Positions 47,241 to 63,066 of a DNA stretch of 64,000 nucleotides are shown in pieces. Each line of letters begins with the position of its first letter. Position 1 is the first letter of the stretch. Both the position numbers and the translations under genes were made by a program. Where the stretch lies: assembly GCA_963760875.1 (NCBI GenBank), contig CAVXEH010000002.1, forward strand, positions 336,258 through 400,257. The letters run 5' to 3'. The notes beneath the pieces are model-generated. The model worked only from the letters and a program-made list of their open reading frames with translations. It did no database searches and was not told the origin of the DNA. The DNA comes from an uncultured Chloroflexia bacterium. Its GTDB lineage: Bacteria > Chloroflexota > Limnocylindria > QHBO01.

Positions 47241-47275
47241 CTCTTGTCGTTGACTTCCTAAGTATGCTCTAGGAT

Positions 47276-47890: not shown

Positions 47891-48774
47891 GGTACGCCTC
47901 TGCGGGCGCCTTCCGCCGGGCGCTCGAGATGCGTCTTACTACGCACGCGCGCGGCACCGGCAGCTCGGTGGTCCGCCTGCGCAAGGAGGTCGCCTTCGAT
48001 CGGCTGCTCGCTCGTCTGTTCGCCGTGGCGCCGGCGCGCTGGGTCCTGAAGGGCGCCCTGGCGCTCGACTACCGCTTCGGCGACCGCGCCCGAACGACGA
48101 AGGACATCGATCTCGCCAACACTGGGGACGAGGCTTCTGCGACGAACGAGCTGCTCGCGGCGCAGGCGGTCGATCTTGGCGACTTCTTCGGCTTCGCGAT
48201 CGAGCGCACGAGCGCCCTCGAACGTCTGGCGGAGGGTACCGCCGTGCGCTATCACGTCCGCGCCGAGCTGGCCGGTCGGGTGTTCGATGAATTCCTGCTC
48301 GATGTGGGCTTCGACCCGCCAACCGGGATCGAGCTCGACCGGCTACACGGGCCGGACCTCCTGGTCTTCGCCGAGATCACGCCCGTCGAGGTCGCAGCCA
48401 TCCCGATCGAGTTCCACGTGGCCGAGAAGCTCCATGCCTTCAGTCGCGTCTATAGCGTGGGCTCGATCGTGAGCACCCGCGTGAAGGACCTCGTCGACCT
48501 CGTGCTCATCGCGGCCGAAGCCACTCTGGAGGCAGCGAGGCTCCGGTCGGCCATCAGGACCACCTTCGGTCGCAGGGCGAACCGTGAGCTGCCCGCAGGC
48601 CTGCCCCGTCCACCAGGCGACTGGCGCGTCCCGTATGGCCGGATGGCGCGTGTGGTCGGCCTCGATCCTGACCTTGAGGCCGGCTTCGGCTTGGCCGCGC
48701 GGATGCTCGATCCGATTCTCGGGCGCACCGTTCACCGTGGCGCGTGGGATCGTGTCGCTCAGACCTGGACCTGA
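47887..48774 (+). CDS. AbiEii/AbiGii-family nucleotidyltransferase toxin
   Basis: Motif LKGALALDYRFGDRARTTKDIDL (KGGxAL...R.S.DIDL) typical of DUF1814/AbiEii nucleotidyltransferases. 295 aa. Confidence 0.7.
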   Translation: MRYASAGAFRRALEMRLTTHARGTGSSVVRLRKEVAFDRLLARLFAVAPARWVLKGALALDYRFGDRARTTKDIDLANTGDEASATNELLAAQAVDLGDFFGFAIERTSALERLAEGTAVRYHVRAELAGRVFDEFLLDVGFDPPTGIELDRLHGPDLLVFAEITPVEVAAIPIEFHVAEKLHAFSRVYSVGSIVSTRVKDLVDLVLIAAEATLEAARLRSAIRTTFGRRANRELPAGLPRPPGDWRVPYGRMARVVGLDPDLEAGFGLAARMLDPILGRTVHRGAWDRVAQTWT

Positions 48775-48867
48775 TCTCGCGGCAGCCAGGAGTGTCCGGC
48801 CTGGCCGTGCTTCTGGTTGACCTGGCGGCGATGTCACAGGTGACCGAGTGCTACCGTCCAGTCCAGC

Positions 48868-49767
48868 ATGAGCCAGGTGCCTCAAGCCCGTGACGTGCCC
48901 GACAGCGTCTACGCCGCCCTGCGGCCCCTGCTGACCTCGATCGCCTACGAGATGGTGGGCGCGGTGGGTGACGCGCAGGACATCGTCCAGGAGGCGTTCC
49001 TGCGCTTCCATCGGGCGGGCGCCGAGGGCCTGGCGATCGATTCCCCGAAGGCCTGGCTGTCCAAGGTTGTGACCCGCCTCGCGATCGACCATGTCCGATC
49101 GGCACGAGTCCGCAGGGAGACCTACGTCGGGACCTGGCTGCCGGAGCCGCTCCTGACCGATCCGACCCCGGACGCGGCTCGATACGTCGAGACCGCCGAG
49201 GCCCTTTCGATGGCCTTCCTGGTCCTGCTCGAGCGTCTCAGCCCCGTCGAGCGGGCGGTGTTCCTGCTGCGCGACGTGTTCGACTTCGGTTTCGACGAGA
49301 TCGCGGACATCGTCGGCAAGTCCCAGGACAACTGTCGCCAGATCGCGGTGCGCGCCCGGCGACACATCGAGGACGGCAGGCCGCGGTTCGAGGCCTCGCG
49401 CGAGCGCCGCGAGGCGCTGGCCCGGCGGTTCTTCGAGGCAGTCGGTGCCGGAACGACGGACGGGCTCGTGGACCTGCTGGCGGCCGACGTCGTGCTCTAC
49501 ACCGATGGCGGCACCCACGGGCCGGCGTTCCCGCAGCCGATCCACGGGCGCGAGCGTGTGACGCGGATCTTCAGCGGCTACCGCCCGGCCTCCTTGGGAG
49601 GCGTCGAGCAACGGGTCGCCGAGCTCAACGGCCAGCCGGGGATGGTCTTTCTCGATGCCGAGGGTCGGACGGTGGCCGTCATCGGGCTCGATATCGCCGA
49701 CGGTCAGATCATCGCCGTGCGGGCGATCAGCAACCCGGAGAAGCTCCGCCACCTCGACCAGCGCTGA
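48868..49767 (+). CDS. ECF sigma factor of the ECF41 type with C-terminal SnoaL/NTF2-like extension
   Basis: Sigma-70 region 2 (DIVQEAFLRFHR) and region 4 (SPVERAVFLLRDVFDFGFDEIADIVGKSQDNCRQIAVRARRHI). The hallmark YVGTWLPEP linker motif (YVGPWLPEP in ECF41) is present. Confidence 0.75.
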   Translation: MSQVPQARDVPDSVYAALRPLLTSIAYEMVGAVGDAQDIVQEAFLRFHRAGAEGLAIDSPKAWLSKVVTRLAIDHVRSARVRRETYVGTWLPEPLLTDPTPDAARYVETAEALSMAFLVLLERLSPVERAVFLLRDVFDFGFDEIADIVGKSQDNCRQIAVRARRHIEDGRPRFEASRERREALARRFFEAVGAGTTDGLVDLLAADVVLYTDGGTHGPAFPQPIHGRERVTRIFSGYRPASLGGVEQRVAELNGQPGMVFLDAEGRTVAVIGLDIADGQIIAVRAISNPEKLRHLDQR

Positions 49768-49925
49768 GCCCGCCCGCGACCGAGCAAACATCCTGTCACT
49801 GGCTTGCCGCCGGTTCCGTCTTGATTGTTGCCGGGTCGTCACCGGCTTCGCAGCGAAGAACGCGACCATATGAAGCTCGAGCTGACCATTGCAGCCGATT
49901 TGAACGACCCCGGAGAGGAGAAACC

Positions 49926-50405
49926 ATGACCGATGACAAGCCGACCACGAAGCGCCCGGGCGAGCGCAAGTCGGACGAAGCGTGGACCGACGAAGAGAAG
50001 GCGGCGATCAAGGAGTACCGCCGGGAGCGAAGCCGCTCGGCGCGCCCCAGGAGGCGCGGCAAGCAGGACGAGGCGGACGGCGAAGCCGAGGTGCTCGCCA
50101 AGATCGCCCAGCTGGACGAGCCGGATCACACCATGGCCGAGCGACTCCACGCGATCGTCAAGACCGCCGCGCCGGGGATGTCGTCCCGTACCTGGTACGG
50201 GAGCCCCGCGTACTACCGGGATGGACAGCTCGTCTGCTACTTCCAGGAGCGCGCCAAGTTCAAGGCGCGATACGCGGTCCTGGGCTTCAGCGACAAGGCC
50301 CACCTCGACGACGGCTCGATGTGGCCGGTCATGTACGCCCTGCCGGAGATGACATCTGCCGACGAGGCGAGGATCACCGCGCTCGTCAAGAAGGCGGTGG
50401 GCTGA
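49926..50405 (+). CDS. DUF1801 (YdhG-like) domain protein
   Basis: GGAGAGGAGAAACC-ATG strong SD. The C-terminal half (WYGSPAYYRDGQLVCYFQERAKFKARYAVLGFSD) resembles DUF1801. The N-terminus is Lys/Arg/Glu-rich. Confidence 0.5.
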   Translation: MTDDKPTTKRPGERKSDEAWTDEEKAAIKEYRRERSRSARPRRRGKQDEADGEAEVLAKIAQLDEPDHTMAERLHAIVKTAAPGMSSRTWYGSPAYYRDGQLVCYFQERAKFKARYAVLGFSDKAHLDDGSMWPVMYALPEMTSADEARITALVKKAVG

Positions 50406-50432
50406 GAAAGCCACGAGCTGAGGCCAACCTCC

Positions 50433-50693
50433 TTACCTCGACATGTGTCTGGAACGACTGGCAGCCGTGCGACTCCGGTCTCGTTTCAGGACCGCACGAC
50501 AGTCTGGGCAATATCGCTGGACCGGCGAGCGGCGTTCGACGACTTGATGGCAACGCGCGCACTGGACGAGCGCGACCTTCAGCCACGCGCGCGATCGAGC
50601 CGTGGGGCGGGAGAGCGAGATGCGACTCTCAGTCGTTCCACGCGAATTCAGTACACGGCCGGCTCCCGCCCGGCCAGATGACCCTGCGGCCAA
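50433..50693 (-). CDS. Stand-alone 86-aa zinc-ribbon-like ORF homologous to the C-terminal module of the serine recombinase at 60585-62345 (fragment or domesticated small protein)
   Basis: AGAGRVLNSRGTTESRISLSRPTARSRAWLKVALVQCARCHQVVERRSPVQRYCPDCRAVLKR aligns with the recombinase C-terminus. About 80% nucleotide identity over ~250 bp. Confidence 0.4.
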   Translation of the reverse strand: MAAGSSGRAGAGRVLNSRGTTESRISLSRPTARSRAWLKVALVQCARCHQVVERRSPVQRYCPDCRAVLKRDRSRTAASRSRHMSR

Positions 50694-50751
50694 TCCGTTA
50701 ACTCGAACGGGGTACCTCGACTGGCGGCACCCCGACGCTTTCCGCGGCGCC

Positions 50752-51969
50752 TTACTCGAGCGCGTTGTCGACTGACATGGCAGGGATGCCTACCTCGATC
50801 GCAAGCCCGCCGGCTTGCCTCGCGCGAGCCCTGACGATGCCGCCATGGGCGTCGGCAATCGCCCGCACAATCGAGAGGCCGAGTCCCCACCCTTCTTGGC
50901 CAGCCGATCGATCGGGCAGTCGCTGGAATGGCTGAAACAGCCGCTCGACTTCCATCGCCGGGATCGGCAGGCCGGTGTTGGTGACCCGCAGGACGGCCTC
51001 CCCGAAATGTCTTTCCGTCGAGATCTCGATCGCACCGTTGGGGATGTTGTACTTGGTCGCGTTGTCGACCAGATTGGCCGCGAGCCGCTCGAGCAGCTGA
51101 GGATCACCGCGCACATCCGCGCGATCCAAGCGCTCCTCGAGGTGCAGCCCGGCTGCCTCGATGCCGTGGCGCCGAGTTCGCAGCGCGGCGTCGACGGACT
51201 CGGCGAGGTCAGCCCGCTCCGCGCGTTCCAGCCCGCGCTCGCCGCGTGCCAGGGTGAACAGCGCCTCGAATAGCCGCTCCTGCTGCTCCTCGGCGACCAG
51301 AACTCGCTCGAAGGTTGCGCGCCAGCCGTCCATCGTGGGCTCCGGGTCGTCGAGCGCGTACTGGACCAGCGCCCGCTGTCGCGCGAGTGGTGTGCGCAAC
51401 TCGTGCGAGGCGTTGGCGACGAACTGCCGTTGCGCCTCGAAGGACCGCTCGAGTCGGCCCAGGAGATCGTCGAACGTCTGCCCGAGATCCTTCAGCTCGT
51501 CGTCCGGGCCGGCCGGGGCCAGCCGGAGCCCGAGGTTCGTGCTCGAGATCTCCCGTGCGGACGCGGACATGGTGCGCAGTCGCCGCAGCAGACGCCCGGC
51601 CACGAACCACCCGATCGCCACTGAGGCGAGGGCCAGGCTCGCAATCGCCACCATGGACAGGATCAGGTAGTAGCGTTGCTCCGCAACATGCTGGCCCTCG
51701 ACCACCGATCTGAGCAGCTTCGGCAGGTCCGCCGCGGAACCACCGAAGGGAGCAGCCAGGGTGTTCGCACCTCCGCCGCCGAACGGGCCGCCGAAGTCGA
51801 CCGTCACCTGGCCGTCGGAACCAACGTTCACGGCCAGATTGGTCGTCGTGAACGCCACATACGAGACCCCGAGGAGTGCAGCCCCCGCGAGCAGGATCAG
51901 CGCGCCGTACAGCAGCGCCAGGCGGAGGCGGATCGTGATCCGCGGCAGGTGGGGAATCGGGAGTCTCAT
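50752..51969 (-). CDS. Sensor histidine kinase (HAMP-HisKA-HATPase)
   Basis: H-box ASHELRTPLA; N, G1 (DNATKY), G2 (GWGLGLSIV) boxes; two N-terminal TM segments. Confidence 0.8.
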   Translation of the reverse strand: MRLPIPHLPRITIRLRLALLYGALILLAGAALLGVSYVAFTTTNLAVNVGSDGQVTVDFGGPFGGGGANTLAAPFGGSAADLPKLLRSVVEGQHVAEQRYYLILSMVAIASLALASVAIGWFVAGRLLRRLRTMSASAREISSTNLGLRLAPAGPDDELKDLGQTFDDLLGRLERSFEAQRQFVANASHELRTPLARQRALVQYALDDPEPTMDGWRATFERVLVAEEQQERLFEALFTLARGERGLERAERADLAESVDAALRTRRHGIEAAGLHLEERLDRADVRGDPQLLERLAANLVDNATKYNIPNGAIEISTERHFGEAVLRVTNTGLPIPAMEVERLFQPFQRLPDRSAGQEGWGLGLSIVRAIADAHGGIVRARARQAGGLAIEVGIPAMSVDNALE

Positions 51970-51991
51970 CTCGCCTCGCCCGCTGGTGTCA

Positions 51992-52645
51992 TCAGATCCG
52001 GTACCCAGCCTCCACGACCGTCTCGATGAGCGGCGGATCGCCCAGCTTGGCCCGGAGGCGGCTCACGGTCGTCCTGACCGCCTGCGAGAACGGATCGGCG
52101 TTCTCGTCCCACACTCGCTCGAGGAGTTCCTCCGATGACACCACGCGACCCTCGGCGGCGAGGAGCAGCTCGAGCACGCCCAGCTCCTTGGGGCTCAGCT
52201 CGACGAGCTGGCCGGCGCGCCGGACCCGTCGGCGGGCGGTGTCGAGCTCCAGATCGTCGTGCCGCAAGACTGGCGGGAGGGCGGGTTGCGAGCGCCGCAC
52301 GAGGGCGCGGACGCGAGCCACCACTTCGGGGAGGTCGAACGGCTTGCCGATGTAGTCGTCGGCCCCGCGGCCGAGCCCGTCGACGAGGTCATCGGTCGTG
52401 GCCGCGGCCGTCAGCATGAGCACCCGGGCGCGGCATCCTCGCGAGACGAGCTCGGCGCAGACCTGGTCGCCGTGGACGCCGGGCAGGTCGCGGTCGAGGA
52501 CGATGACGTCGTAGTCGTGCTCCAATGCGCGCTCGAGGCCCGCACTGCCATCGAGCGCGATGTCCACCGCCATCTGCGCCCGGCGCAGGGTCGCACCGAC
52601 GATCTCCGCCAGCTCCTGGTCGTCTTCGATCACCAGCACGCGCAT
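51992..52645 (-). CDS. OmpR/PhoB-family response regulator
   Basis: REC domain (VLVIEDD...DVIVLDRDLPG...) plus C-terminal winged helix (LSPKELGVLELLL...). Confidence 0.85.
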   Translation of the reverse strand: MRVLVIEDDQELAEIVGATLRRAQMAVDIALDGSAGLERALEHDYDVIVLDRDLPGVHGDQVCAELVSRGCRARVLMLTAAATTDDLVDGLGRGADDYIGKPFDLPEVVARVRALVRRSQPALPPVLRHDDLELDTARRRVRRAGQLVELSPKELGVLELLLAAEGRVVSSEELLERVWDENADPFSQAVRTTVSRLRAKLGDPPLIETVVEAGYRI

Positions 52646-52905
52646 CGGCTCCTACCGTCGACTTCCCATCAAGCGAATCGGCCCGCATCGGTGGCCGACC
52701 CGTCCTGCCCGTCCATGATCGCTTCCCCACGTTGCGCGGGCATAACACCACGTCGCGAGGCGCCGAGTCTGCTGTTCGCGGCGTTATCCGGTCGCAACAT
52801 CCCATCGCCCATACCTCTTCACGGCGGCGGCGAACGCGGCCGGTTACCGGTAGTGACGAGAGGAGCGACCATGCGTGCCGCCTGGACGAGGCGAAGGGAA
52901 ACCCG

Positions 52906-53622
52906 ATGAGCGGGCCAGCGACGACAATTCTGCGCGCCCGCGGACTGCGCAAGGACTATGGCGCGGGTCCAGGACTGGTGCGGGCTGTTCATGACCTCGA
53001 CCTCGATGTCGCGCGCGGCGAAGCCGTCGCCGTGATGGGCCCGAGCGGCTGTGGGAAATCCACACTCCTCCACCTGCTTGGCGGGCTCGATCGGCCCACG
53101 GCCGGCGAGGTCTGGGTCAACGAGCGCCGGATCGACGCCCTCTCGCAGCGCGCCCTGGCCCGGGTGCGGCAGATGGAGGTTGCCTTCGTCTTTCAGGCGT
53201 TCCACCTCATGGAGGAGCTCACCGCCCAGGAGAACGTGGAGCTCCCGGCGCTCCTTGGTGGACGCCGGCCGGACGACGCCCGTCGGAGTGCCAGATCCCT
53301 GCTCGACCAGGTCGGCCTCGCCGGTCGGGCCGAGCATCTGCCATCGGGGCTCTCGGGCGGCGAGCGCCAGCGGGTGGCCATCGCCCGGGCGCTGGCCAAC
53401 GAGCCGGCGATCGTGCTCGCCGACGAGCCGACAGGCAATCTCGACAGCACCGCGACCCGGGAGGTCGTCGCCTTGCTCGGGTCACTCCACCGATCGGGTC
53501 TCACGGTCGTCATCGTCACCCATGACGAGCGGGTCGCCGCGACCGCGGATCGCATCGTGTCGATGCGCGACGGCGCCTTCGGCGATCGGCATGGCGCCAA
53601 CGGCGCCGTCGCGAGGAACTGA
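52906..53622 (+). CDS. ABC transporter ATP-binding protein (MacB/LolD/FtsE-like)
   Basis: Walker A GPSGCGKST; signature LSGGERQRVAIARAL; Walker B VLADEPTGNLD; H-loop VTHD. Confidence 0.85.
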   Translation: MSGPATTILRARGLRKDYGAGPGLVRAVHDLDLDVARGEAVAVMGPSGCGKSTLLHLLGGLDRPTAGEVWVNERRIDALSQRALARVRQMEVAFVFQAFHLMEELTAQENVELPALLGGRRPDDARRSARSLLDQVGLAGRAEHLPSGLSGGERQRVAIARALANEPAIVLADEPTGNLDSTATREVVALLGSLHRSGLTVVIVTHDERVAATADRIVSMRDGAFGDRHGANGAVARN

Positions 53623-53624
53623 CG

Positions 53625-55463
53625 ATGGGCCGCGCGCTGCTCATCGCCCGCCTGGGGTTGAAGGACCTGGGACACTACGCCGGCCAGTCCCTCCTGCTCC
53701 TTCTCGCGGTGGCCACCGGGGCCGCGATGTTGACGCTCGGCCTGGCCCTGGATGGAACGACCAACGACCCGTACGCCCGGACCCGCACGGCCACAAACGG
53801 GCCCGATGTGGTGGCCGAAGCCGCCCCGTCCGATGCCCTCGGGAGCGGCTCGGGGCCGGCCCAGCCAGGCCCCGGGCGCGGAGGACCGGAGAGCCAGACC
53901 AACGTCGCCGATGCCAGGGTGCTTGTGCCCCTCGAGCAGGCGGCTGGCGTGATCGGCTCCTCAGGCCCGTTCCCGATGACATGGGGCTTGCTGCGGATGC
54001 CGAGTGGGGACGGCGCGGCGTTGGTGGTTGGGCGCGACCCTGCGGCGTCGTCGGTCGACCAGCCGCAGTTATTACAGGGCAGCTGGGTTCGGCCCGGCGG
54101 CGTGGTGGTCGAGGCCAGCTTCGCCGCGGCAGTCGGTCTTCAGATCGGCGATCCGCTGAGCATCGGCGGCCGGTCCTACGTCGTGGTTGGAATCGCCGTG
54201 ACGGCCGCGATTCCCACCTATCCGGATGGATGCCATTACCTCGGCTGCTTCCTGGTCGGGACCCTCGGCGATTCCAACCCGGGTCTCATCTGGGTCCCTG
54301 CTCCCGACGTGCCGGGCATCGCTGCGGCAAGCAAGGAGCCGCTCTTCTACGTCTTGAATCTGAAGCTCAGCGATCCCGCCGACGCTCCGGTCTTCGCCGA
54401 ACGCCGCAATGCGGACGCCGCCGCGACGGGCATCACGCTGTTCACCTGGCAGGGCATCCGTGCCGCCGATGCCGATGCGGTCGGCACCATGCAGCAGGTG
54501 CTGTTCACCGGGAGCGCACTGCTCGATCTGCTGGCACTCCTGAGTGTGGTGGTGCTCGTCGGCGCTCGCATGGCGGCGCAGAGGCGCCGGGTCGGCCTGC
54601 TGAAGGCCGTTGGTGCCACGCCCGAGTTCGTCGCAGCGGTACTGCTCGTCGAGCACGCCCTGGTCGCGGTTTGCGGCGCCGGGGCGGGCCTGCTCATCGG
54701 CTGGCTGGCGGCGCCGTTGATCAACGGACCGGGCGCCGGGCTCCTGGGCGCGGCCAGCGCCGCGTCGCTCACCGGCTCGGTCGTCGCGATCGTGGTGGTG
54801 CTCGCGCTCGCCGTGGCCATGGTGGCGACGCTCGTGCCCGCCGTGGGCGCTGCCCGGCAGAGCACCGTGGCGGCACTGGAGGACGCGGCGCATCCCCCGC
54901 GGCGTCGGGAGACGGTGCTGCGGGCCACGGAGCACCTGCCCGCGACGCTGCTCGTGGGTGTCCGGCTTGCGATGCGCCGGCCAAGGAGACTGGCGGTGAG
55001 TGCGCTCAGCGTCGCGGTCACAACCTTCGGGCTCGTCGCGGTGCTGATCGTCAACACCACCGGCTGGTCACTCGGCCCGCGCGTTGCCCAGGCGACCGTC
55101 ATCGTGTCGGTGATGCTCGTCATCCTGGCCGCGGTGAACGCCCTTGTCATCGCCTGGGCCACCGCGCTCGATACTCGACGGCCAGCCGCCCTGATGCGTG
55201 CCCTCGGCGCAACACGGGTGCAGGTGACGACCGGCTTGGCGCTGGCCCAACTGGGCCCAGCGTTCGTGGGAGTGCTGCTCGGCATCCCTGGCCCGATCGT
55301 GCTCTACCTGCGTGGCGGCCGCCTGTCGACATCACCCCCGGTGCTCCCGCTGGTGGCCGTGGTCATCGTCACGCTGCTGGCGATCGCGGCGCTCACCGCC
55401 CTCGCGACGCTGGCTGCTTCCCGCGGACCGGTGGCCGACGTCCTTCAGGCCGATACCGCCTGA
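53625..55463 (+). CDS. ABC transporter permease, FtsX-like (MacB-type, two FtsX domains)
   Basis: ATG overlaps the upstream ATPase stop. 612 aa with two sets of 4 TM helices and large extracytoplasmic domains. Confidence 0.8.
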   Translation: MGRALLIARLGLKDLGHYAGQSLLLLLAVATGAAMLTLGLALDGTTNDPYARTRTATNGPDVVAEAAPSDALGSGSGPAQPGPGRGGPESQTNVADARVLVPLEQAAGVIGSSGPFPMTWGLLRMPSGDGAALVVGRDPAASSVDQPQLLQGSWVRPGGVVVEASFAAAVGLQIGDPLSIGGRSYVVVGIAVTAAIPTYPDGCHYLGCFLVGTLGDSNPGLIWVPAPDVPGIAAASKEPLFYVLNLKLSDPADAPVFAERRNADAAATGITLFTWQGIRAADADAVGTMQQVLFTGSALLDLLALLSVVVLVGARMAAQRRRVGLLKAVGATPEFVAAVLLVEHALVAVCGAGAGLLIGWLAAPLINGPGAGLLGAASAASLTGSVVAIVVVLALAVAMVATLVPAVGAARQSTVAALEDAAHPPRRRETVLRATEHLPATLLVGVRLAMRRPRRLAVSALSVAVTTFGLVAVLIVNTTGWSLGPRVAQATVIVSVMLVILAAVNALVIAWATALDTRRPAALMRALGATRVQVTTGLALAQLGPAFVGVLLGIPGPIVLYLRGGRLSTSPPVLPLVAVVIVTLLAIAALTALATLAASRGPVADVLQADTA

Positions 55464-55515
55464 TCGGCCGCTTCATTGCAGGGCAGTGAGGGGCCCGCGC
55501 TTCTCAGCACGCTTG

Positions 55516-55827
55516 CTATAGGTCAGAGCCTGGATCGGCGTTCCGTTGCACCTTCCGTCGCTGCATCATCGCCTCCCGGCTGAGCTTGCGTTTGAGGACG
55601 GCTCGACACGCCGGACAATGGCGTTGTACTGGGGACTTCCGCTCGACGACCTGAAGGCAGCCGGCGCACTCGACGAGTGCGATCTTCAGCCACTCGCGGG
55701 AGCGAGGCTGGTGGGGGAGCGGGATACCGCTCTCGGTCGCGCCCAACCGATTCAGTACACGGCTGGCTCCGGCCCGCCGGAGCCAGCTACCAGGTGGTAG
55801 CATGTTTTCGACCCGTGATCCAAGCAC
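55516..55827 (-). CDS. Stand-alone 103-aa zinc-ribbon-like ORF homologous to the serine recombinase C-terminal module (second copy)
   Basis: SWLRRAGASRVLNRLGATESGIPLPHQPRSREWLKIALVECAGCLQVVERKSPVQRHCPACRAVLKR. Nucleotide similarity to 50.5 kb and 60.7 kb copies includes the conserved palindrome GGCTCCGGCCCGCCGGAGCC. Confidence 0.4.
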   Translation of the reverse strand: MLGSRVENMLPPGSWLRRAGASRVLNRLGATESGIPLPHQPRSREWLKIALVECAGCLQVVERKSPVQRHCPACRAVLKRKLSREAMMQRRKVQRNADPGSDL

Positions 55828-56034
55828 GGATCGGCCGTTCTAGCGCCCTGACAAGCTAGCCGAAGAGGGTTAGGTTCGAACCGCTTCCGACGCTCTGGAC
55901 GAGGAGCGCGGCCGGCATGGTGATCGCGCCGCTCTCAACCCGCGGATTCGACGGTTTTGGTCGTCGCTTGACGCATGTAAGGCATTACCCTATGGTAATG
56001 CCTTACCAACTGGTCATGCGTTAGGAGCACCGTC

Positions 56035-56463
56035 ATGCCGCAGGTCACGCGCACGGTTCATATCCCGCGGTCGCCGAGCATCGTCTGGAAGCAGTTCGCG
56101 TCGGAACGCGCGTTGCGCCGGTGGCTGGCGCCGACGATCAGCATCGACCTCCAGGAAGGCGGCGACTATCGCATCCCCGGTGCCGATGGCCCGACCTCGA
56201 TCAGCGGCGTCGTGCTGGAGCTCGTCCCCGAAGGTCGCCTCGTGCTGTCGTGGCTGGAAGAAGGTTCGGAGTGGCGTCACCCCGGTCGGCTGGTGATCGC
56301 CCTTCGCGCCGAGGGTGACGGGACCGAGGTCACGCTGACGCACGATGGCTTCGCCGGCATTGGAACCTCGGGCTGGAAGGCAACCCGGGAAGCGTACGAG
56401 CGTGGCGTTGATCGCCATAAGCTGCTGCAGCGGCTTGCGGACGTGGTACTTGAGCGTGGCTGA
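56035..56463 (+). CDS. SRPBCC-superfamily protein (AHSA1/activator-of-Hsp90-ATPase-homolog-like)
   Basis: 142 aa; RTVHIPRSPSIVWKQFASERALRRWLAP...GGDYRI...SGVVLELVPEGRLVLSW typical of AHSA1-type SRPBCC. Commonly paired with ArsR regulators. Confidence 0.65.
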   Translation: MPQVTRTVHIPRSPSIVWKQFASERALRRWLAPTISIDLQEGGDYRIPGADGPTSISGVVLELVPEGRLVLSWLEEGSEWRHPGRLVIALRAEGDGTEVTLTHDGFAGIGTSGWKATREAYERGVDRHKLLQRLADVVLERG

Positions 56464-56794
56464 CGAATCAGATCCCTTCCGAGCGCTCGCGGACCCGACG
56501 CGTCGCCGCATCCTCGACCTCCTCCTGGAGCGAGGCAGCCTCACCGTCGGCGAGCTCGCCACCGAATTCCCCGACCTCGTGCCTTCAGGCATCTCCAAGC
56601 ACCTCATGAACCTCCGTGCCGCCGGACTGGTCGTCGCCCAGAAGGAGGGCCGGCACCAGCGCTACCGGATCGACCAGGATGGGCTCACGGCAGCGTTCGG
56701 CCCCTGGGTCGCCCGGTACGAGGCCCTGTGGACCAGCGCCCTGCAGCGACTCCGAGATCTCGCCACGGAGCGCCCGGAGCCCCGGGCTCGTTGA
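56456..56794 (+). CDS. ArsR/SmtB-family transcriptional regulator
   Basis: DPTRRRILDLLLERGSLTVGELATEF...ISKHLMNLRAAGLVVAQKEGRHQRYRI. GTG start overlaps the SRPBCC stop. Confidence 0.75.
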   Translation: MADESDPFRALADPTRRRILDLLLERGSLTVGELATEFPDLVPSGISKHLMNLRAAGLVVAQKEGRHQRYRIDQDGLTAAFGPWVARYEALWTSALQRLRDLATERPEPRAR

Positions 56795-56819
56795 TGAACA
56801 CCCGCGCCCCTTGTCCCTG

Positions 56820-56957
56820 CTAGGTCTGCCCGAGAGCGTTTGGGAACCAGCGCGAAGCGCGCCAGCCGCGGGCCAGGATCCACACGAGCTGGGCCGCATT
56901 CGCCGCTCCGACCTTGGAACGCGCATTCGCCAGGTGAGGCTTCACGGTGAAATTGTG
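56820..56957 (-). pseudogene. Remnant of a LuxR-type HTH (C-terminal ~45 codons only)
   Basis: The minus-strand translation HNFTVKPHLANARSKVGAANAAQLVWILARGWRASRWF...* matches the LuxR C-terminal helix-turn-helix (TVKTHLSNIFxKLGVxNRxQ) but has no upstream coding partner. Confidence 0.45.
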
Positions 56958-57044
56958 ACAGGCCAAGGCGGTGGGCGGCCGCCTTCTCCGACCCGGCGAC
57001 CGAAGGTCACCTGGCGTCTTCGCTCAGGTTGAGGACATCGTCAG

Positions 57045-57428
57045 CTACGCCTGGCGCTTCGCCACGCCGGCCCGAGCGATGGCCTCGACCGCTGCCGCGT
57101 CGAACACATCGCCCTCATACCAGTCGATGCCGCGCCGCCGGCTGCTGTCGGGGTACGCGTTGAAGAGGTGGTGCGGGTCTGGCAGCAGCGCGCCGTCGCT
57201 CATCGTGAGGCGGACCCGCTCCTTGAGGACGTTGACGTGGCACACGATGCCGTCGTGTTCGAAGCAGGGAGTTCCCGGGAGCGTCGCCGAGACCCACTTC
57301 CACGTCTCGACGATCTCGGGATCTGCGGCATGGATCGCCGCACGAAGCCGAGCCACCATCTCGCCCTTCCAGCCAGGGTTCGAGGCGATCAGCTCGTCCA
57401 GCCGCGGGTTTCGATTTGTCTCCATCAC
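57045..57428 (-). CDS. DUF1801 (YdhG-like) domain protein
   Basis: 127 aa; LDELIASNPGWKGEMVARLRAAIHAADPEIVETWKWVSATL...GIVCHVNVLKERVRLTMSDG typical of DUF1801. Confidence 0.6.
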   Translation of the reverse strand: MMETNRNPRLDELIASNPGWKGEMVARLRAAIHAADPEIVETWKWVSATLPGTPCFEHDGIVCHVNVLKERVRLTMSDGALLPDPHHLFNAYPDSSRRRGIDWYEGDVFDAAAVEAIARAGVAKRQA

Positions 57429-57825
57429 TCGCGACTATCTCACAGCAGCGGCGAGACAGCGCATGCCTCCACCGAGGCCTACAACCCATATGGAATGGAC
57501 ACGACCATGATTCGGCTCGCGGGCGTCTTCCTCGTCAACTTCGGGTTCAACTGGGGGCCTCGCGAGCCGATGCGGCGTGAGCAGCATGTGCGCGCTTGGA
57601 GTTGGCTGCGCACCACCGTCCTCAGCCATCCCTTCGGGGACAACGTTGTCGGCAGATATGGAATGCTTCGCCTGTGAGCTGATCAAAGACCCGACGAAGG
57701 TGCCCGGCGGCGGATCGCCACGATGGGGATGTGGGTGGTCGAGCAGTGCATCGGGCCCCCTGGGAGTGGGGACGGTCGTCGTCGAGCCATTCGTCACAGA
57801 CATTCGGTAAGGTCTAGGGATCGGT

Positions 57826-58692
57826 ATGGCAATGCAGGCGTCAGAGGTACCGCGCGCGGTGGCTGCGGCCACGTCGACCGCCTCAGCACTCGGCCTGAGG
57901 GTCGACGAGGCGATCGTTCTGCACATCTCGAACAGGCTCGCGTTGCGCCTGCTGCCATCCGACGTTCTTGCGCGTGTGGCTCTCGCAACGCACGAGGCCG
58001 CAAAGCTCGAAGTCGAAGTTGCGGCACGGCTGGCCGCAACGGACAGTCCCGTAGCGACTCTCGATCCTCGAGTGGCGCCGCGCGTCTATGAGCGCAACGG
58101 CTTCGCGATCACGCTCTGGACCTACTACGAGCCCCAGCCGGCTGGCGAGCTCTCACCAGCCGATTACGCTGACGCGCTCTCGCGGCTTCACGTCGGTATG
58201 CAGCACGTCGATGTCAGCGCGCCGCATTTCACGGATCGCGTCAAGGAAGCTCAGCGACTCGTTGGGAGTCGCGACCGGACTTCGGAGCTCGGCGACGCGG
58301 ACCGTGACCTTGTCGTGAACACGTCCAGTCGCGTGATGCGCGCGATCGCCGGGCGAGGCTCCGCGGACCAGCTACTGCACGGCGAGCCCCACCCCGGGAA
58401 CGTCCTTTACACCAAGAACGGCCCGCTGTTCATTGACCTGGAGACTGCTTGTCGCGGTCCGGTCGAATTCGACCTCGCCCATGTCCCGAAGGAGGTCAGC
58501 GAGTGCTATGCGGGCATCGATCAAGCACTGCTCTCCGAGTGCCGCGTCCTCGTTCTTGCGATGGTCGCAGCCTGGCGGCTGGATCCTGAGGACCAGTTCC
58601 CAAGCGGAAGACAGGCGGCCCTGGAGCTCATCGCTGCGTTGCGGGCTGGTCCACCGTACCCGGCGCTCGGCGCCATCTCCGGCCTCAACTGA
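57826..58692 (+). CDS. Aminoglycoside/choline-kinase-like phosphotransferase (APH family)
   Basis: Catalytic loop LLHGEPHPGNVLY (HGDxHxxN) and FIDLE (DxE/D). Confidence 0.7.
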   Translation: MAMQASEVPRAVAAATSTASALGLRVDEAIVLHISNRLALRLLPSDVLARVALATHEAAKLEVEVAARLAATDSPVATLDPRVAPRVYERNGFAITLWTYYEPQPAGELSPADYADALSRLHVGMQHVDVSAPHFTDRVKEAQRLVGSRDRTSELGDADRDLVVNTSSRVMRAIAGRGSADQLLHGEPHPGNVLYTKNGPLFIDLETACRGPVEFDLAHVPKEVSECYAGIDQALLSECRVLVLAMVAAWRLDPEDQFPSGRQAALELIAALRAGPPYPALGAISGLN

Positions 58693-58865
58693 GGCCGAGG
58701 TGAGCAGGGTCCGGATGCCAACCCGGCGCTCGCGATCGGATAGCGCCCAGAAGGGATGGCGGACTTGGAGCCGTGGGCGCACCACGCTCGACGATCTTGG
58801 AGCCGCCCGGCGCTCAGGCGCGCTGGGCTCGAGTCAGCCCGCCGCCCACCGGCGATCGGCGCCCA

Positions 58866-58904
58866 CAACGGCGCAATTGAGCTTCCTTGAACGGACGCTA
58901 TGTC
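58866..58904. repeat. Copy 1 of a ~40-70-bp direct-repeat family (CAACGGCGCAATTGAGCTTCCTTGAACGGACGCTATGTC) upstream of the cupin gene end
   Basis: Near-identical to 59691-59730. Contains an internal hairpin AACGGACgctatGTCCGTT. Confidence 0.7.
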
Positions 58905-58963
58905 CGTTGGTGGCGGTTAAGAGGCGTACCAGGCGGTAGGGGCTGCTGTGCGCCTTTGCCGCC

Positions 58964-59434
58964 TCACTCGACCGGCTCGAGACCGTGCTTGCGCATGTTG
59001 GCCGCCTCCTCGTCCGCAGTGGGCGGTTCCTCCCGTGCCCAGAGCGACGCGAGGTCTTCGAAGTAGCCGTCGAGGGCAGGAGCATGAATGATGAGCGTGC
59101 GGGCGGGCGCATCCGACTCGTTGACGAAGGTGTGACTGGCTCCCTCAGAGACGATGACACAGCCGTTGGCCTCGACGGTCGCTCGCTCGCCGTCGAGGAT
59201 GAAGGTCAGGGTCCCTTCCAGGATCAGGAACATCTCCAATGCGCCGGGGTGACGGTGTGGAGCAGGGGGACGTCCGTGCGGGGGCAGCGTGCGATCCATG
59301 AGCGAGAAACGACCGCCCGTCGTGGCTCCAACCGCCTTGAACAGCATCTGGCTGCCGCGGGCCGTGAGCTGCATTCCCCCGCCGGGCGGCACAATCGTGG
59401 TCAAGCGTGGGTCACCCACTTCATCGACGCGCAC
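58964..59434 (-). CDS. Cupin-domain protein
   Basis: Cupin motifs PHRHPGALEMFLILEGTL and GCVIVSEGASHTFVN. 156 aa. Confidence 0.6.
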   Translation of the reverse strand: MRVDEVGDPRLTTIVPPGGGMQLTARGSQMLFKAVGATTGGRFSLMDRTLPPHGRPPAPHRHPGALEMFLILEGTLTFILDGERATVEANGCVIVSEGASHTFVNESDAPARTLIIHAPALDGYFEDLASLWAREEPPTADEEAANMRKHGLEPVE

Positions 59435-59690
59435 CCCTATGCCTGGCGTGCTGGGTCTACATTATCAAGCGATGACTGCATCGAGTCCAACGGCGTATTT
59501 CGCGCGGCGCTGTGGGCCGCCTTCGGACAAGACTCGCCGCTGGAGCGGTACACGGTCGCCGACGTGTTGCGATAAACCAGCGACCCAGTGATCGCGGGTT
59601 CCCCGTCGGCACGCCCGACGTGGAGCGCCAGGTGGCATTGATCCCGCTCATCGGGTGATCAGCCGGCGCGCCGGACCCACCGTTCACCCC

Positions 59691-59761
59691 CAACGGCGCA
59701 ATTGAACCTTCTTGAACGGACGCTAATGTCGGTGATGACGCGTCGACTCCGTTGGCGCCGA
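59691..59761. repeat. Copy 2 of the repeat family (X part CAACGGCGCAATTGAACCTTCTTGAACGGACGCTA + Y part ATGTCGGTGATGACGCGTCGACTCCGTTGGCGCCGAC)
   Basis: X matches 58866-58904. Y matches 60485-60524 (GTCGGTGATG..CGACTCC..TTG..GCCGAC). Confidence 0.7.
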
Positions 59762-59973
59762 CCCGTCGCGCATGGAGATTGAGCGGCGTCGGCCTGGCCG
59801 AGCGAGGCGGCCGGAAGGTGCTGTCATCGCGCGAGCGCCAGGTCGTCAACGGAATCGCTGTTCTAACCTTTGTAGCGGCGTCCCACAGGATTAGACTCGC
59901 GGGAACGGCGGAGCAGGGGCGTCCGAGCCTGAAGGACAGCCGCGTGATCATCGGGAGAACGGCGGGCAGCACC

Positions 59974-60390
59974 ATGGCCACGGCCAGCGTGCGTTACATC
60001 GTCAACGACGTCGATGTGGCGATCGAGTTCTACACGCGGCTGCTGGGCTTCGCCGAGGTGATGCACCCGGCACCGACGTTCGCCATGCTGTCGCGCGGCG
60101 GCCTGCGGCTGGTGCTCAGCGCGCCGGGCGGTGGACCGGGCGGCGGCCAGGCGATGCCCGACGGAACGCTGCCCCAGCCCGGCGGCTGGAATCGATTCCA
60201 GTTGCAGATCGTCAATCTCGAGTCTACGGTGGCCGAGCTCCGCGCCAGCGGCGCTCGCTTCCGCAACGAAGTCGTCATCGGCATGGGCGGCAAGCAGATC
60301 CTCGTTGAGGATCCGTCCGGCAACCTGGTGGAGCTCTTTGAGCCGACACTGCCGGAAGCCGCACTCGAGGAGCGTGGGCGCGCCACCTGA
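59974..60390 (+). CDS. VOC-family protein (glyoxalase/bleomycin-resistance/dioxygenase fold)
   Basis: VRYIVNDVDVAIEFYTRLLGF...FAMLSRGGLRLVLS...ILVEDPSGNLVELFE typical VOC beta-alpha-beta-beta-beta modules. 138 aa. Confidence 0.65.
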   Translation: MATASVRYIVNDVDVAIEFYTRLLGFAEVMHPAPTFAMLSRGGLRLVLSAPGGGPGGGQAMPDGTLPQPGGWNRFQLQIVNLESTVAELRASGARFRNEVVIGMGGKQILVEDPSGNLVELFEPTLPEAALEERGRAT

Positions 60391-60484
60391 GCCTGCCGGT
60401 GCTCGCACTGGATGCGGAGCGAAGCCGACGTCCCGCGACCCGTGACACCGGCAAACACGCGGACAACGACGTACGAGACGCTAA

Positions 60485-60524
60485 GGTCGGTGATGTAGGT
60501 TCGACTCCCCTTGAACCGCCGACT
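60485..60524. repeat. Copy 3 (Y-part) of the repeat family, just downstream of the serine recombinase gene
   Basis: GGTCGGTGATGTAGGTTCGACTCCCCTTGAACCGCCGAC. Contains a T-loop-like GGTTCGACTCC. Confidence 0.55.
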
Positions 60525-60584
60525 TCAACCTCCTGAGGTCAAGCAATCCGCTCAGGTTAAAGGTCGAGGCTGTCGTTGAGCCGC

Positions 60585-62345
60585 TCAGGCGCGGGCGACG
60601 GCGTCGCGGCTGCGCGCTCGCTTCAAGGCTCGCCGACACTCCACGCAGTGCCGCTGGACCGGTGAGGTCTGTGCGACCACCTGGTGGCATGTCGCGCACT
60701 CGACGAGAGCGGCCTTCAGCCACTCCCGAGTCCGCTCGGGGCGGGGGAGCGAGATGCGGTTCTCAGCCGTTCCGTCCGAATTCAGTACACGCCCGGCTCC
60801 GGCCCGCCGGAGCCACTCACTTACTGCGTCCGACCGGTTAACACCGTGATCGGTCGTCATGTTCCAGACGGCTACGGCCTTCAGCTCGCGGCTGTCGACG
60901 TCGACGCGTTCGAAGAGATCCCTGACGGTCGCGACCCTCGTCTCGAGCGGGGCGCGCTCGAGAATGCCCTCGAACTGCGCGATGGTGTCGTCGACCACCT
61001 TCTTCGTGATCCTGATCGGTCGCTCTCTCAGCTGGAGGTCGTTGAGGCGGGCCGTCGCCGCTTCCAGCTCGGCGCCGAGGGCCTCAATCTCGAGGGTGAT
61101 GCGCTCGGCCGCGCGTGGCCCGGCAGTACGAAGGGCGCGACGCAGGTTCGCATCCTGCTGCTCCAGCTTGCGCACTTGGGCGCGCGCTCGGTCGAGGTCT
61201 GGACCGCGATGCTCGGCCCGCAGTCGGATGTCCTCGTTGAGCAGAGTAACCATCTCGCGGATCGCATCCGGAGTGAAGAGCGTGGCCCGGATGCGGTCCA
61301 TGACCCCGGCCTCGAGGTGATCGGCTCGGACCTGGGGACGGCCACACCGAGCCAGGCAGCGGTAGTACCGCCGCTCCCGCGAATTCGTGCCCGCCATCCG
61401 GCTGCCGCAGGCGCAGCGCAGCAGCTCAGTCAGAACGTATCCGCCGGCGTAGCGTCGAACCGGTAGCCGATTCGCGCGGCGGCGGGTAAGCATCTCTTGG
61501 ACTCGGTTCCAGAGGTGCTCCGGAACAATCGCCTCGACCTCGCTGGTGACGACGTCCTGCTGCGGGTTGGGTCGCCGCTTTCGGCCATGCTCGCCCTCGA
61601 CGCGCGTCTCTCTGTTGAAGACCTTGACCCCGCGGTAGATCGGGTTGGCGAAGATCGTCGCCAGGCTCGACTTGTTCGCGCATATGCCGGTGGCGGCCAC
61701 GATCTCGTCGTACATCGCGCCCTGGGACGCCATCTGGAAGGCCTGGACGACCCGCGGCGCGACCTCCGGATCGGGCACCCAGCGCACCCGGGTGAGTGGC
61801 GTGCCGTCGTAGCGGCTGCCCACGACCACCGGCTCGCGCTTGTAGCCGACAGGTGGGCGACCGCCGGCCGAGTAGCCGTGGCGTGCCAGCTCCTTCTGCG
61901 AGCGCAGCACATCGGCGGCGGTGGCCGCAGCGTAGAACTGGTCGACCGCCATCAGGATGTGGGTGATGAGCATGCCGAGCGGCCCCTCGGGGATCGGCTC
62001 CTTGTAGCTGATGAGCTCGATGCCCCGCTTCCGCAGGAGGGCCCGGTAGATGAGGCCCTCCTCGATATCGCGGCCGAAGCGGCTCAGCTTCCAGAGCAGC
62101 ACCCATTTGAAGCCCGGCTGGGGCTCGCGTGCGCGGCCGACGATCTCCTGGAGTCCGGGCCGGCCCTCAAAGTCGGACCCGCTGATGCCCACATCCTTGA
62201 CGACCTCGCAGGTGGCTCCGGCGGCAGCGACCGCCGCCGTCAGCTCGGCGATCTGGGAGTCGACGGGCAGCTCGTCGTCCGCCTGGTGGGCGGTCGAAAC
62301 GCGGACATAGACGATGCCGTGGGTGCCGGCCGGGATCTTGATCAT
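60585..62345 (-). mobile_element. Large serine recombinase (resolvase domain, recombinase domain, zinc ribbon, coiled coil) with an additional C-terminal CxxC...CxxC module
   Basis: Catalytic GIVYVRVSTAHQ (Ser nucleophile); recombinase-domain blocks; zinc-ribbon LLRCACGSRMAGTNSRERRYYRCLARCGRP; coiled-coil Ala/Leu/Arg-rich region. Extra ~100-aa C-terminal module EWLRRAGAGRVLNSDGTAENRISLPRPERTREWLKAALVECATCHQVVAQTSPVQRHCVECRRALKR. Start likely MIKIPAGT (track ORF extends to 62453). Confidence 0.85.
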
Positions 62346-62415
62346 GGTCCCTCCATCGTAGGTCCAGCCCGCAAGCAGGCGCTCTCGGCCCTGCCGTAGC
62401 GAGTCCGTGTTCTGG

Positions 62416-63066
62416 TCATGCCGCCTGGCCGGCAGCACCCCGGGCGATCTCATCGAGGCGCACCGCTAGACGCCCAACGGTGTCCCCGAGAGTTTCCCGG
62501 TCCCAGAGCAGTCGGCGGTCGTCGTTGCGCAGCATCCACACGTCCACGCTCGTCACCGGCCCGCCGCTGGACCGACCCTCGAAGTGGAGGGCTGACGCCG
62601 TGGCGTAGAGGCAGAGATGCTCGGATCGCGTGATCTCGTGGTCGGTGATCAGGTGACGGAGGTGCCAGCCGTCATCGGACTTGTAAGCGAGGTCGACACC
62701 CATCGCGACCCTCATGCCAAGCACGGCGACAGCGACCTGGTGCATCCCGACCAGGGTCGGCGCCGGCTCGGCTTCATCAAGCGCGGCAAACCGCTCGAGC
62801 ATTCGCCGTCCGTTGGCGATCTCGCTGGCCGCGGTCTCGCGGCGCTTTGCCCGCGACGCGCGGGTGTCGTAGTCCTCCAGGAGGACCCGCGGCTCGCGAC
62901 CACGAGCGATGTAGCGCCGGATCGCAGCGTCGATCCATGGGCGCTGAGGGCTGCGCGGGGTGTCGGGGTCGATAGGGGCGAGCCTTTCTAGCCGGAGCTG
63001 CCGTGCCAGGGCGCCCGGACTCCGGATCCCGGTGCGCAGCTGGCGCGCCGTCAGGACGTTATGCAT
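62416..63066 (-). CDS. Hypothetical protein (216 aa) upstream of the serine recombinase
   Basis: ORF with protein-like composition; no motif recognised. Confidence 0.35.
   Translation of the reverse strand: MHNVLTARQLRTGIRSPGALARQLRLERLAPIDPDTPRSPQRPWIDAAIRRYIARGREPRVLLEDYDTRASRAKRRETAASEIANGRRMLERFAALDEAEPAPTLVGMHQVAVAVLGMRVAMGVDLAYKSDDGWHLRHLITDHEITRSEHLCLYATASALHFEGRSSGGPVTSVDVWMLRNDDRRLLWDRETLGDTVGRLAVRLDEIARGAAGQAA

Follow-up and report, generated by a model that had tools for sequence, protein, structure and literature searches.

The subject of this study is a gene for a large serine recombinase, and a palindrome that lies within it, in a 64,000-nucleotide (nt) stretch of DNA from an uncultured Chloroflexia bacterium (GenBank assembly GCA_963760875.1, contig CAVXEH010000002.1, positions 336,258 to 400,257; the whole stretch is referred to as the window). 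The palindrome is very probably the crossover core of a family of integrative elements in Chloroflexota (metagenome-assembled genomes, MAGs, of Limnocylindria type) that insert at the 3' end of tRNA-Asn(GTT) by means of a large serine recombinase. The attachment site of the element, attP, is a ~50-bp dyad within the reading frame of the recombinase, with 76 codons left to the stop. Exchange at its central dinucleotide, which is CC on the tRNA strand, would regenerate tRNA-Asn and would place the first ~514 recombinase codons beside the tRNA, with the stop supplied by the tRNA sequence after WLRR or WLRRQDSNLRPSG. The last 76 codons, which encode a linker, a zinc ribbon and a basic helix (the C-module), would end up at the far end of the inserted DNA. 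Repeated insertion at one tRNA would give tandem arrays in which each unit carries its own C-module at its end, and a C-module that meets an older recombinase body would re-form both a full-length chimeric gene and an attP-type site. The 622-amino-acid (aa) open reading frame (ORF) of the window is such a re-joined junction form. Sequence comparison shows where the site lies, that it is identical to the end of the tRNA, that the ORF is partitioned, how the array is built and that the module is under selection. The three features at the center of the argument are as follows.

60585..62453, minus strand: large serine recombinase ORF, 622 aa from the ORF translation
60780..60829, no strand: attP-type site, ~50-bp imperfect dyad, from sequence, breakpoints and third-position conservation
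60585..60815, minus strand: C-module copy 3, in-frame fusion to the recombinase body, from translation, AlphaFold2 (AF2) and the ratio of nonsynonymous to synonymous substitution rates (dN/dS)

The palindrome, GGCTCCGGCCCGCCGGAGCC, can be written as GGCTCCGGC-CC-GCCGGAGCC and occupies 60795-60814 inside the minus-strand recombinase ORF, with perfect 9-bp arms at 60795-60803 and 60806-60814. Its coding-strand reading is TGG CTC CGG CGG GCC GGA GCC GGG, or WLRRAGAG. A second exact copy is located at 55765-55784. When up to three mismatches were allowed, four matches were observed against 0.13 expected by shuffling, and none of 100 shuffles reached four. A 12-nt core at 60804-60815 of the window, CCGCCGGAGCCA, is shared with tRNA-Asn. 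On the coding strand this core reads TGGCTCCGGCGG, begins with TGG and is the complement of the tRNA-Asn 3' end; in the tRNA the 12 shared bases run from the last base of the T-stem through the acceptor 3' strand and the discriminator base to CCA.

The palindrome forms the middle of a larger dyad centered on the CC dinucleotide at 60804-60805 of the plus strand (GG on the coding strand). Of the 26 inner positions of the arms, 20 agreed when the consensus tail of the recombinase was set against the reverse-complemented consensus of the module start, and the dyad can be written out as ACGCAGTAAGTGAGTGGCTCCGGC-GG-GCCGGAGCCGGCC(G/A)(T/C)(G/T)TACTG.. The central GG, core nucleotides 11-12, is invariant in all 39 unique ungapped module copies. 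The attP sites of serine integrases are ~50-bp imperfect dyads around a non-palindromic central dinucleotide, and such a non-palindromic center would fix the orientation. Strand exchange would be expected at the central dinucleotide of this dyad. GTA motifs stand 12-13 nt from the center in attB and 16 nt from it in attP, which is suggestive only, and no claim is made from it. The recombinase tail upstream of the core (60816-60845, GTTAACCGGTCGGACGCAG...) also resembles the tRNA-Asn sense strand from the anticodon loop onward (GTTAACCGCTTGGTCGTAG...), a likeness read by eye from the sequences (e.g. L001 11543-11580; L numbers denote related loci). The junction of recombinase and tRNA therefore forms a ~70-bp imperfect palindrome, and the coding tail of the recombinase may be derived from the tRNA or may mimic a half-site of the target.

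An earlier note, made from the letters of this DNA, had described the usual resolvase, recombinase and zinc-ribbon domains plus a coiled coil, and both Pfam and AF2 agreed with that description. The Pfam matches, numbered on the 622-aa ORF, were Resolvase (PF00239, E=6.9e-21, residues 47-193), Recombinase (PF07508, E=1.1e-10, residues 230-325) and Zn_ribbon_recom (PF13408, E=1e-8, residues 341-389). These are all of the serine type, with no tyrosine recombinase fold (Phage_integr_3, PF16795) found by Pfam, and the catalytic-serine motif YVRVSTAHQ can be read directly in the translation. No Pfam family was found over residues ~480-622 of the ORF. The true start of the gene is probably the ATG at 62345, which gives a protein of 586 aa; this start was preferred since the similarity to related genes at the DNA level sets in at 62346-62351. 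Counted from it, the canonical domains take up the first ~514 aa and the C-module the last 76 codons. In the AF2 model of the 586-aa protein every canonical domain lies within residues 1-500, and a pair of long helices that follows the zinc ribbon, at 359-441, fits an embedded coiled coil. Because the model puts the canonical domains before about residue 500, a 514-aa integrated form would lose none of them.

The close relatives of this protein end at the site. Homologues of the 586-aa protein at 97%, 81% and 70-77% identity were all 513-527 aa long, covered 88% of the query and ended in WLRR. A search with the last 116 aa returned short ORFs only (65-202 aa), and these were of two types. In one, a recombinase tail ends in ...SEWLRR or reads on as ...SEWLRRQDSNLRPSG (tRNA-derived QDSNLRPSG); in the other, the module stands behind unrelated sequence and starts near the WLRR position. 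An exhaustive HMMER pass with a tail-plus-module profile over 1.84 billion representatives gave 235 hits. The best 150 of these were 47-353 aa long with no full-length recombinase carrying the module among them, and many of the 150 end at, or begin near, the WLRR position. In the DNA of loci L001 and L003 the recombinase ORF ends TGG CTC CGG CGG TAG, and its final 15 nt lie inside a tRNA-Asn(GTT) gene called by ARAGORN on the opposite strand. The recombinase also ends within tRNA-Asn in L009, L016, L029, L030, L037 and L046. The truncated 514-aa form is the usual state, and the full-length gene of the window is the unusual re-joined one. In L037 (10974-12520) the recombinase next to tRNA-Asn has 88% DNA identity to the window gene and a frameshift near codon 409, and a C-module lies only ~770 bp upstream of the recombinase start. 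L037 would be a minimal ~2.5-kb unit, essentially a circularly permuted recombinase gene.

A scan with the module alignment, using one genome per species, found 55 loci, almost all of them in MAGs from Chloroflexota that are of either Limnocylindria or 'uncultured Chloroflexia' type. About 60 module copies start at one nucleotide, the TGG of the core, and continue with GC(C/G)GGAGCCGGCC..TACTG, and the 70 nt upstream of them are unrelated between loci. The common order is module, module and then a recombinase body, often truncated, that ends on tRNA-Asn (L016, L029, L030, L037, L046, L009, L039, L048); body-module fusions like that of the window occur occasionally (L010, L011, L017, L031). Five classes of left arm were distinguished: the recombinase tail (GTTAACCGGTCGGACGCAGTAAGTGAG); class c, with the hairpin GCTACC-N4-GGTAGC; class d, a long hairpin adjoining AbiE genes; and classes e and f, two further hairpin types. 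In a census of 98 unique junctions, every left-arm class was seen with both tRNA-type and module-type right arms, and the left part of the core, TGGCTCCGGC, was exact in 68 of them. Since all combinations of left and right arms are joined at one nucleotide, the junctions point to reciprocal site-specific recombination rather than to deletion or decay.

The decay of whole recombinase genes by deletion was considered as a source of the repeats, with the real attachment site lying outside the gene. Recombinase remnants of varying length do occur at junctions in L011, L017, L031 and L029, as this explanation would have it. However, random deletions would not stop at one nucleotide in ~60 copies whose upstream sequences fall into five or more unrelated classes, and decay accounts neither for the coincidence of the breakpoint with the tRNA-Asn 3' end nor for intact homologues that all stop at it. 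We rejected this explanation as highly improbable, since it is contradicted by the homologue ends, the breakpoints, the census and the changing neighbors of unit S2 described below.

The module copies carry two kinds of constraint. Among the 39 unique ungapped copies, module codons 1-12 (36 nt) are conserved at third positions, even where the amino acids alternate (RVLN vs HLLR), and TACTG is retained. From codon 28 onward (codons 28-64) positions 1 and 2 are conserved and third positions are free, and the conserved residues of this zinc-ribbon part are the four Cys, W32, E39 and Q54. The third-position conservation of the first 36 nt indicates constraint at the DNA level, and the free third positions in the zinc ribbon indicate constraint at the protein level. 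Over the 42 codons of the zinc-ribbon part, the median dN/dS was 0.19 for 946 pairs (Nei-Gojobori), a value that is only approximate because dS, at ~1.3, is near saturation. The zinc ribbon is thus, from these comparisons, under purifying selection.

These results also bear on whether the palindrome could be a GC-rich hairpin that arose by chance, or else a terminator of transcription or another RNA structure within the gene. The G+C content of this part of the window is 66-69%, and short palindromes are commoner in such DNA than in AT-rich DNA. Against this stand the four matches where shuffling predicts 0.13, the invariant central dinucleotide and conserved third positions in 39 unique copies, the identity with the tRNA-Asn 3' end and the coincidence with every homology breakpoint. 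The same evidence already contradicts a chance hairpin or terminator, and we give that reading next to no credence.

The C-module at the end of the window recombinase (copy 3) begins with a linker (WLRRAGAGRVLNSDGTAENRISLPRPERTR), followed by a zinc ribbon and, at the C-terminus, a basic helix. The earlier note was right that an extra C-terminal module is present, but measured against all close homologues the surplus is 76 aa rather than ~100, and only the last ~45 of these are confidently folded. Both CxxC pairs of its CATC-x12-CVEC motif are there, with a spacer of 13 residues instead of 12 (CATC-x13-CVEC) and the Cys codons between 60636 and 60698. The palindrome, which the note had assigned to this module, does lie in the coding region, at the very start of the module; this is a stretch modelled as disordered linker and is outside the zinc ribbon. 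When the last 145 aa were modelled with AF2, only the final ~45 aa were confident, and the site-encoded residues had a predicted local distance difference test score (pLDDT) below 50. Those ~45 aa form a short helix, a two-stranded zinc knuckle or beta-hairpin and a long basic helix (pLDDT 76-96). The 586-aa model likewise has low confidence over 505-544, which includes WLRR, followed by the zinc ribbon and helix at 545-586 (pLDDT 76-91). The C-module is therefore best described as a predicted tethered add-on to the recombinase. It did not correspond to an annotated domain of Pfam: the three module copies of the window gave sub-threshold matches only, to DUF7571 (E=0.0069) and Zn_ribbon_6 (E=0.02), both below the gathering score.

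The translations of the copies show no start codon of the module's own in its first ~27 codons. In all copies the module keeps one frame with respect to the core, identical to that of the recombinase, with WLRR read alike on both sides, so each re-joining yields an in-frame fusion. For these two reasons, we infer that the C-module is functional only when it is joined to a recombinase. A different view is that the C-module is a small gene of the element in its own right, perhaps for a regulator or a directionality factor, that starts near the site and is fused in frame only incidentally. Most module copies are indeed orphans, 51 of the 67 have stayed intact, stand-alone ORFs (e.g. P0026, P0027) are reported by gene callers, and the models show a disordered linker between the module and the recombinase body. 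The class-c junctions offer a start as well, an in-frame ATG or GTG 7 codons before W on the module strand. Most of the other left arms, however, have no conserved start, the module itself provides none, and its frame is fixed to that of the recombinase in all copies. We regard a separate gene as improbable.

The class-c left arm itself (window 55786-55845; also in L010, L011, L012, L022, L025, L042 and L054) is a conserved stretch of ~60 nt that begins with GATTCgtgctcaGAATC and continues with AAAC(A/G)TG and then the hairpin. On the tRNA strand it would be terminator-like after the tRNA. A free-standing module protein could be made from class-c junctions. The possibility that this arm is a plain native flank of the tRNA was rejected, since different cargo lies behind its copies and it is not always at the outermost junction.

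The window itself is organized as a tandem array. On the minus strand the order is recombinase body, J3, module 3 with cargo, J2, module 2 with cargo, J1, module 1 with cargo, J0 and a tRNA-Asn fragment. From the tRNA end, the parts are as follows.

47191..47240, plus strand: J0, the array anchor, a 50-nt tRNA-Asn(GTT) fragment (3' two-thirds)
47241..50669: unit S1, ~3.4 kb, composite cargo without a recombinase, from Pfam
50433..50693, minus strand: C-module copy 1, orphan ORF of 86 aa
50670-50681: J1, degenerate core TCATCTGGCCGG, behind a ~35-nt remnant of a diverged recombinase tail (GTTAACGGATTGGCCGCAGGG)
50682..55773: unit S2, ~5.1 kb, cargo without a recombinase, from ORF translations
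55516..55827, minus strand: C-module copy 2, orphan ORF of 103 aa (module 55516-55785), from the repeat and breakpoints
55765-55784: J2, exact palindrome, with the core at 55774-55785 and a class-c left arm at 55786-55845
55786..60803: unit S3, ~5.0 kb, cargo without a recombinase, from Pfam
60804-60815: J3, recombinase body joined to module 3

The duplication of this segment at the unit junctions had been noticed earlier and is real. The C-module segment is present three times (60585-60815, 55516-55785 and 50433-50681) at spacings of 5.03 and 5.10 kb, and the three modules share 53-64% protein identity. The J2 left arm consists of the GCTACC-N4-GGTAGC hairpin and a T-run, with an in-frame ATG 7 codons before W. 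S2 ends with C-module 2 and is 99.8% identical to L027 and 96% identical to L029. At the J2 core there are three unrelated left arms across the window, L027 and L029, and the identity of S2 sets in precisely at the core. The three genomes thus show directly that a unit without a recombinase has changed its context by exchange at the site. The recombinase-less units have kept their site arms and an intact C-module, and for this reason they have presumably moved in trans. Together with the shared start of the ~60 copies, the core at the tRNA-Asn 3' end, the homologues ending in WLRR and the strong site conservation across homologues, S2 bears out the proposal of the earlier note, which was to explain the duplicated segment by a recombination site within the 3' end of the recombinase gene.

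The tRNA-Asn fragment at J0 is cut in the anticodon stem and ends with the core CCGCCGGAGCCA at 47229-47240. It scored 27.8 bits with Rfam, which is below the gathering score, and was not called by ARAGORN; its identity to the tRNA-Asn of L001 and L003 is 96%. The G+C content rises from ~0.62 to 0.68-0.72 just beyond the fragment (array boundary 47100-47250). No further tRNA or RNA family was found by ARAGORN and Rfam at the junctions or intergenic repeats. The cut in the anticodon stem, between ..AACAGCCGCC and GG.., falls at one same point in the window (47191), L002 (11577) and L005 (1971), which suggests that a second element family may insert in the anticodon stem of tRNA-Asn and displace its 3' part together with the array. 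A tRNA-Gln(CTG) gene lies at 46819-46893 on the minus strand, 300 nt from the fragment, and tRNA-Asn and tRNA-Gln are 1.7 kb apart in L054.

At the other end, two minus-strand ORFs are found directly upstream of the recombinase (62416-63066, 216 aa; 63066-63260, 64 aa), and neither had a Pfam match. Large serine integrases integrate by attP x attB recombination and require a directionality factor for excision; no candidate for such a factor was recognized. Homology among related loci ends at the recombinase start codon, so the gene and its site behave as a discrete module with variable upstream neighbors.

The direction in which such arrays grow can be read in more than one way. Instead of integrating whole elements at the tRNA, the system could be an integron-like platform, in which the recombinase gene is fixed and recombinase-less circular cassettes insert at the site in its 3' end. 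The newest cassette would then stand beside the recombinase, each one donating a new C-terminus; this differs from the favored explanation only in the place and order of array growth. In the window, L010 and L011, units do lie between the recombinase body and the tRNA, and the window recombinase is intact though it is farthest from the tRNA. The tRNA-side junction of L011 is a c-class arm with an intact tRNA-Asn and can be read as attB-like; an attR-like circle entering the recombinase-tRNA junction would give this arrangement. The units also retain their arms and intact modules. On the other hand, in L016, L029, L030, L037 and L046 the body is directly on the tRNA with the orphan modules on its other side, an arrangement in keeping with insertion at the tRNA end; the viral and metagenome scans brought up no circular cassettes, and the order of insertion cannot be had from sequence alone. 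As to the end at which arrays grow, L016, L029, L037 and L046 favor the tRNA end, and the window, L010 and L011 are compatible with the recombinase end. We consider the platform unlikely.

Several observations weigh against integration of whole elements at an attP inside the recombinase gene. No C-module was found in the 10-kb flanks of L001-L005, so a complete single element was not seen there. A scan of IMG/VR with the module alignment found no relatives in viral contigs, and thus there is no evidence that the elements are phages. A metagenome scan for the attP-type junction found 8 contigs, all with decayed recombinase bodies and none circular or with terminal repeats, and neither an excised circle nor a complete single element with its two ends came out of the scans. 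The tRNA-Asn at the array end of the window is a fragment only. Foldseek found no fold match in the PDB for the AF2 tail (best E=2.1), in a model that is confident for ~45 aa only, and the dN/dS estimate is weakened by the saturation noted above. Finally, serine integrases are normally strict for attP x attB, a rule that does not account for the entry of second and later units into an occupied site.

If elements are integrated through the intragenic site, as we favor, two forms of the enzyme would exist, and we infer that the integrated (514-aa) and the excised or junction (~590-aa) enzymes differ in activity. The difference would most likely concern the direction or the regulation of recombination. 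The partition of the gene may, as a tentative idea with the odds somewhat against it, be a built-in switch of directionality or state: the 514-aa and ~590-aa enzymes would carry out different reactions (excision vs integration) or be regulated differently, and the same site would let the enzyme move recombinase-less cargo at tRNA-Asn in an array like that of an integron, where every unit would supply a replacement C-terminus. A split that spares the domains could in this way couple the form of the enzyme to its state of integration. Large-DNA insertion relies mainly on serine integrases as tools, and the control of their direction is a central question; a natural enzyme with a C-terminus swapped by its own reaction would be a ready-made test case for directionality.

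Among the cargo of the window are a toxin-antitoxin pair, a sigma factor, a two-component/ATP-binding cassette (ABC) module and a phosphotransferase. The genes of S1, assigned with Pfam, are AbiEi/AbiEii (47276-48774), an extracytoplasmic function (ECF) sigma factor with a SnoaL domain (48868-49767), DUF1801 and C-module 1. Its part 47229-48770 recurs beside C-modules in L006, L008 and L044, and its part 48746-50672 recurs in L024, L027 and L029. The AbiEi/AbiEii type IV toxin-antitoxin block is flush with the core in the window and flush with C-modules in L006, L008 and L044; it behaves as a unit end and possibly as a stabilizing module for the array. The ORFs of S2, read from translation, are presumably a histidine kinase (50752-51969), a response regulator (51992-52645) and ABC-transporter/FtsX-like permeases (52525-55463). 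Pfam identified SRPBCC/AHSA1 (56035-56463), DUF1801 (57045-57428), an APH-family phosphotransferase (57826-58692) and a cupin (58964-59434) in S3, which also holds C-module 3 and an ORF ending at 60390 that we take from its translation to be glyoxalase-like. Pieces of S3 recur in L014, L019 and L045. An intergenic repeat of ~70-90 nt is present three times in S3 on the plus strand (58850-58935, 59680-59765 and 60455-60530), with the core CAACGGCGCAATTGA..CTTGAACGGACGCTAA(T/G)GTCGGTGATG..GGTTCGACTCC and a T-loop-like motif that is not called as a tRNA by ARAGORN or Rfam. The region of its third copy, 60477-60585, recurs in conserved form in L010, L025 and L044, where it lies downstream of module stops. 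Unrelated to the site, a 51-nt inverted repeat with 71% complementarity has its arms at 10259-10309 and 17007-17057, 6.7 kb apart.

Arrays of this kind show poorly known soil Chloroflexota collecting multi-gene cargo at one tRNA, and in this they resemble tandem islands, both SCCmec/Ccr composites and those anchored on tRNA genes, such as tycheposons and cis-mobilizable elements. In SCCmec/Ccr composites a 3'-end target is regenerated, tandem units lie between repeated copies of the site and some units are cargo only. Some tycheposons have large serine recombinases, and tandem repeat junctions are described for them (bioRxiv 10.1101/2020.12.28.424599). The window array shares with islands of these types the regenerated 3'-end target, the repeated site copies and the cargo-only units, and it has the features of a tRNA-anchored tandem island: a core that is the last 12 nt of tRNA-Asn, intact tRNA-Asn beside recombinase tails and four junctions in the window. 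The difference lies in the junction repeat, which in the tandem islands is the end of a host gene or tRNA, whereas here the junction adds a 230-bp module that is the recombinase's own C-terminus and is under purifying selection.

Integrons use the tyrosine recombinase IntI, a separate attI and folded single-stranded attC sites. The window array is like them in having the recombinase gene at the array end and promoter-poor, recombinase-less cargo units that each end in a conserved recombination element. It differs in its serine enzyme, in a double-stranded dyad that lies inside the gene and continues into a coding module, in its tRNA anchor and in its multi-gene units. In mycobacteriophage BPs and its relatives, attP is inside the repressor gene, and integration alters the C-terminus of the product and thereby signals the integrated state (PMC4557955, PMC3694055). 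The split gene of BPs is a repressor and its integrase is a tyrosine recombinase, whereas in the window the split gene is the serine recombinase and the regulatory effect is hypothetical. The integration-dependent immunity of these mycobacteriophages is the nearest bacterial precedent for a C-terminus that reports the state of integration.

With the large serine integrases (phiC31, Bxb1, A118/LI, TP901-1), the window enzyme shares the resolvase domain, the recombinase domain and the zinc ribbon with embedded coiled coil, as well as a ~50-bp imperfect dyad attP around a central dinucleotide, the predicted position of the crossover. In large serine integrases attP lies beside the gene and is not known from inside it, and none is known to have this extra C-terminal zinc ribbon. 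The targets of large serine integrases are usually protein-coding genes, and here the target is a tRNA 3' end. A literature search, outside the scope of which lay most subscription-journal papers, found no serine or bacterial recombinase with the attachment site inside its own gene.

The closest likeness in gene organization is to the archaeal SSV-type integrases, and SSV1 also targets a tRNA gene. In these 'suicidal' tyrosine integrases (SSV1, pTN3, pT26-2) the site is in the integrase ORF, so that integration splits the gene and excision re-joins it, and elements that are related can give rise to chimeric integrase genes (PMC8371274, PMC7253208). The occurrence of these integrases is stated to be confined to Archaea (PMC8371274). 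The window system has in common with them a site within the recombinase ORF, the partition of the gene on integration and chimeric genes. In contrast, the SSV-type enzymes are tyrosine recombinases of Archaea whose split separates the catalytic part and inactivates them, whereas the window enzyme is a serine recombinase from Chloroflexota MAGs, that is, from bacteria, and its split removes the 76-aa C-terminal add-on only, with all canonical domains staying in place. This split is not 'suicidal' because the catalytic and DNA-binding domains are spared. Recombinases with an intragenic site have so far been described, in the searchable literature, only for archaeal tyrosine integrases, and a bacterial serine counterpart would show an independent origin of this architecture in the other recombinase superfamily. 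The window enzyme works like the SSV-type family in one respect and is not a member of it.

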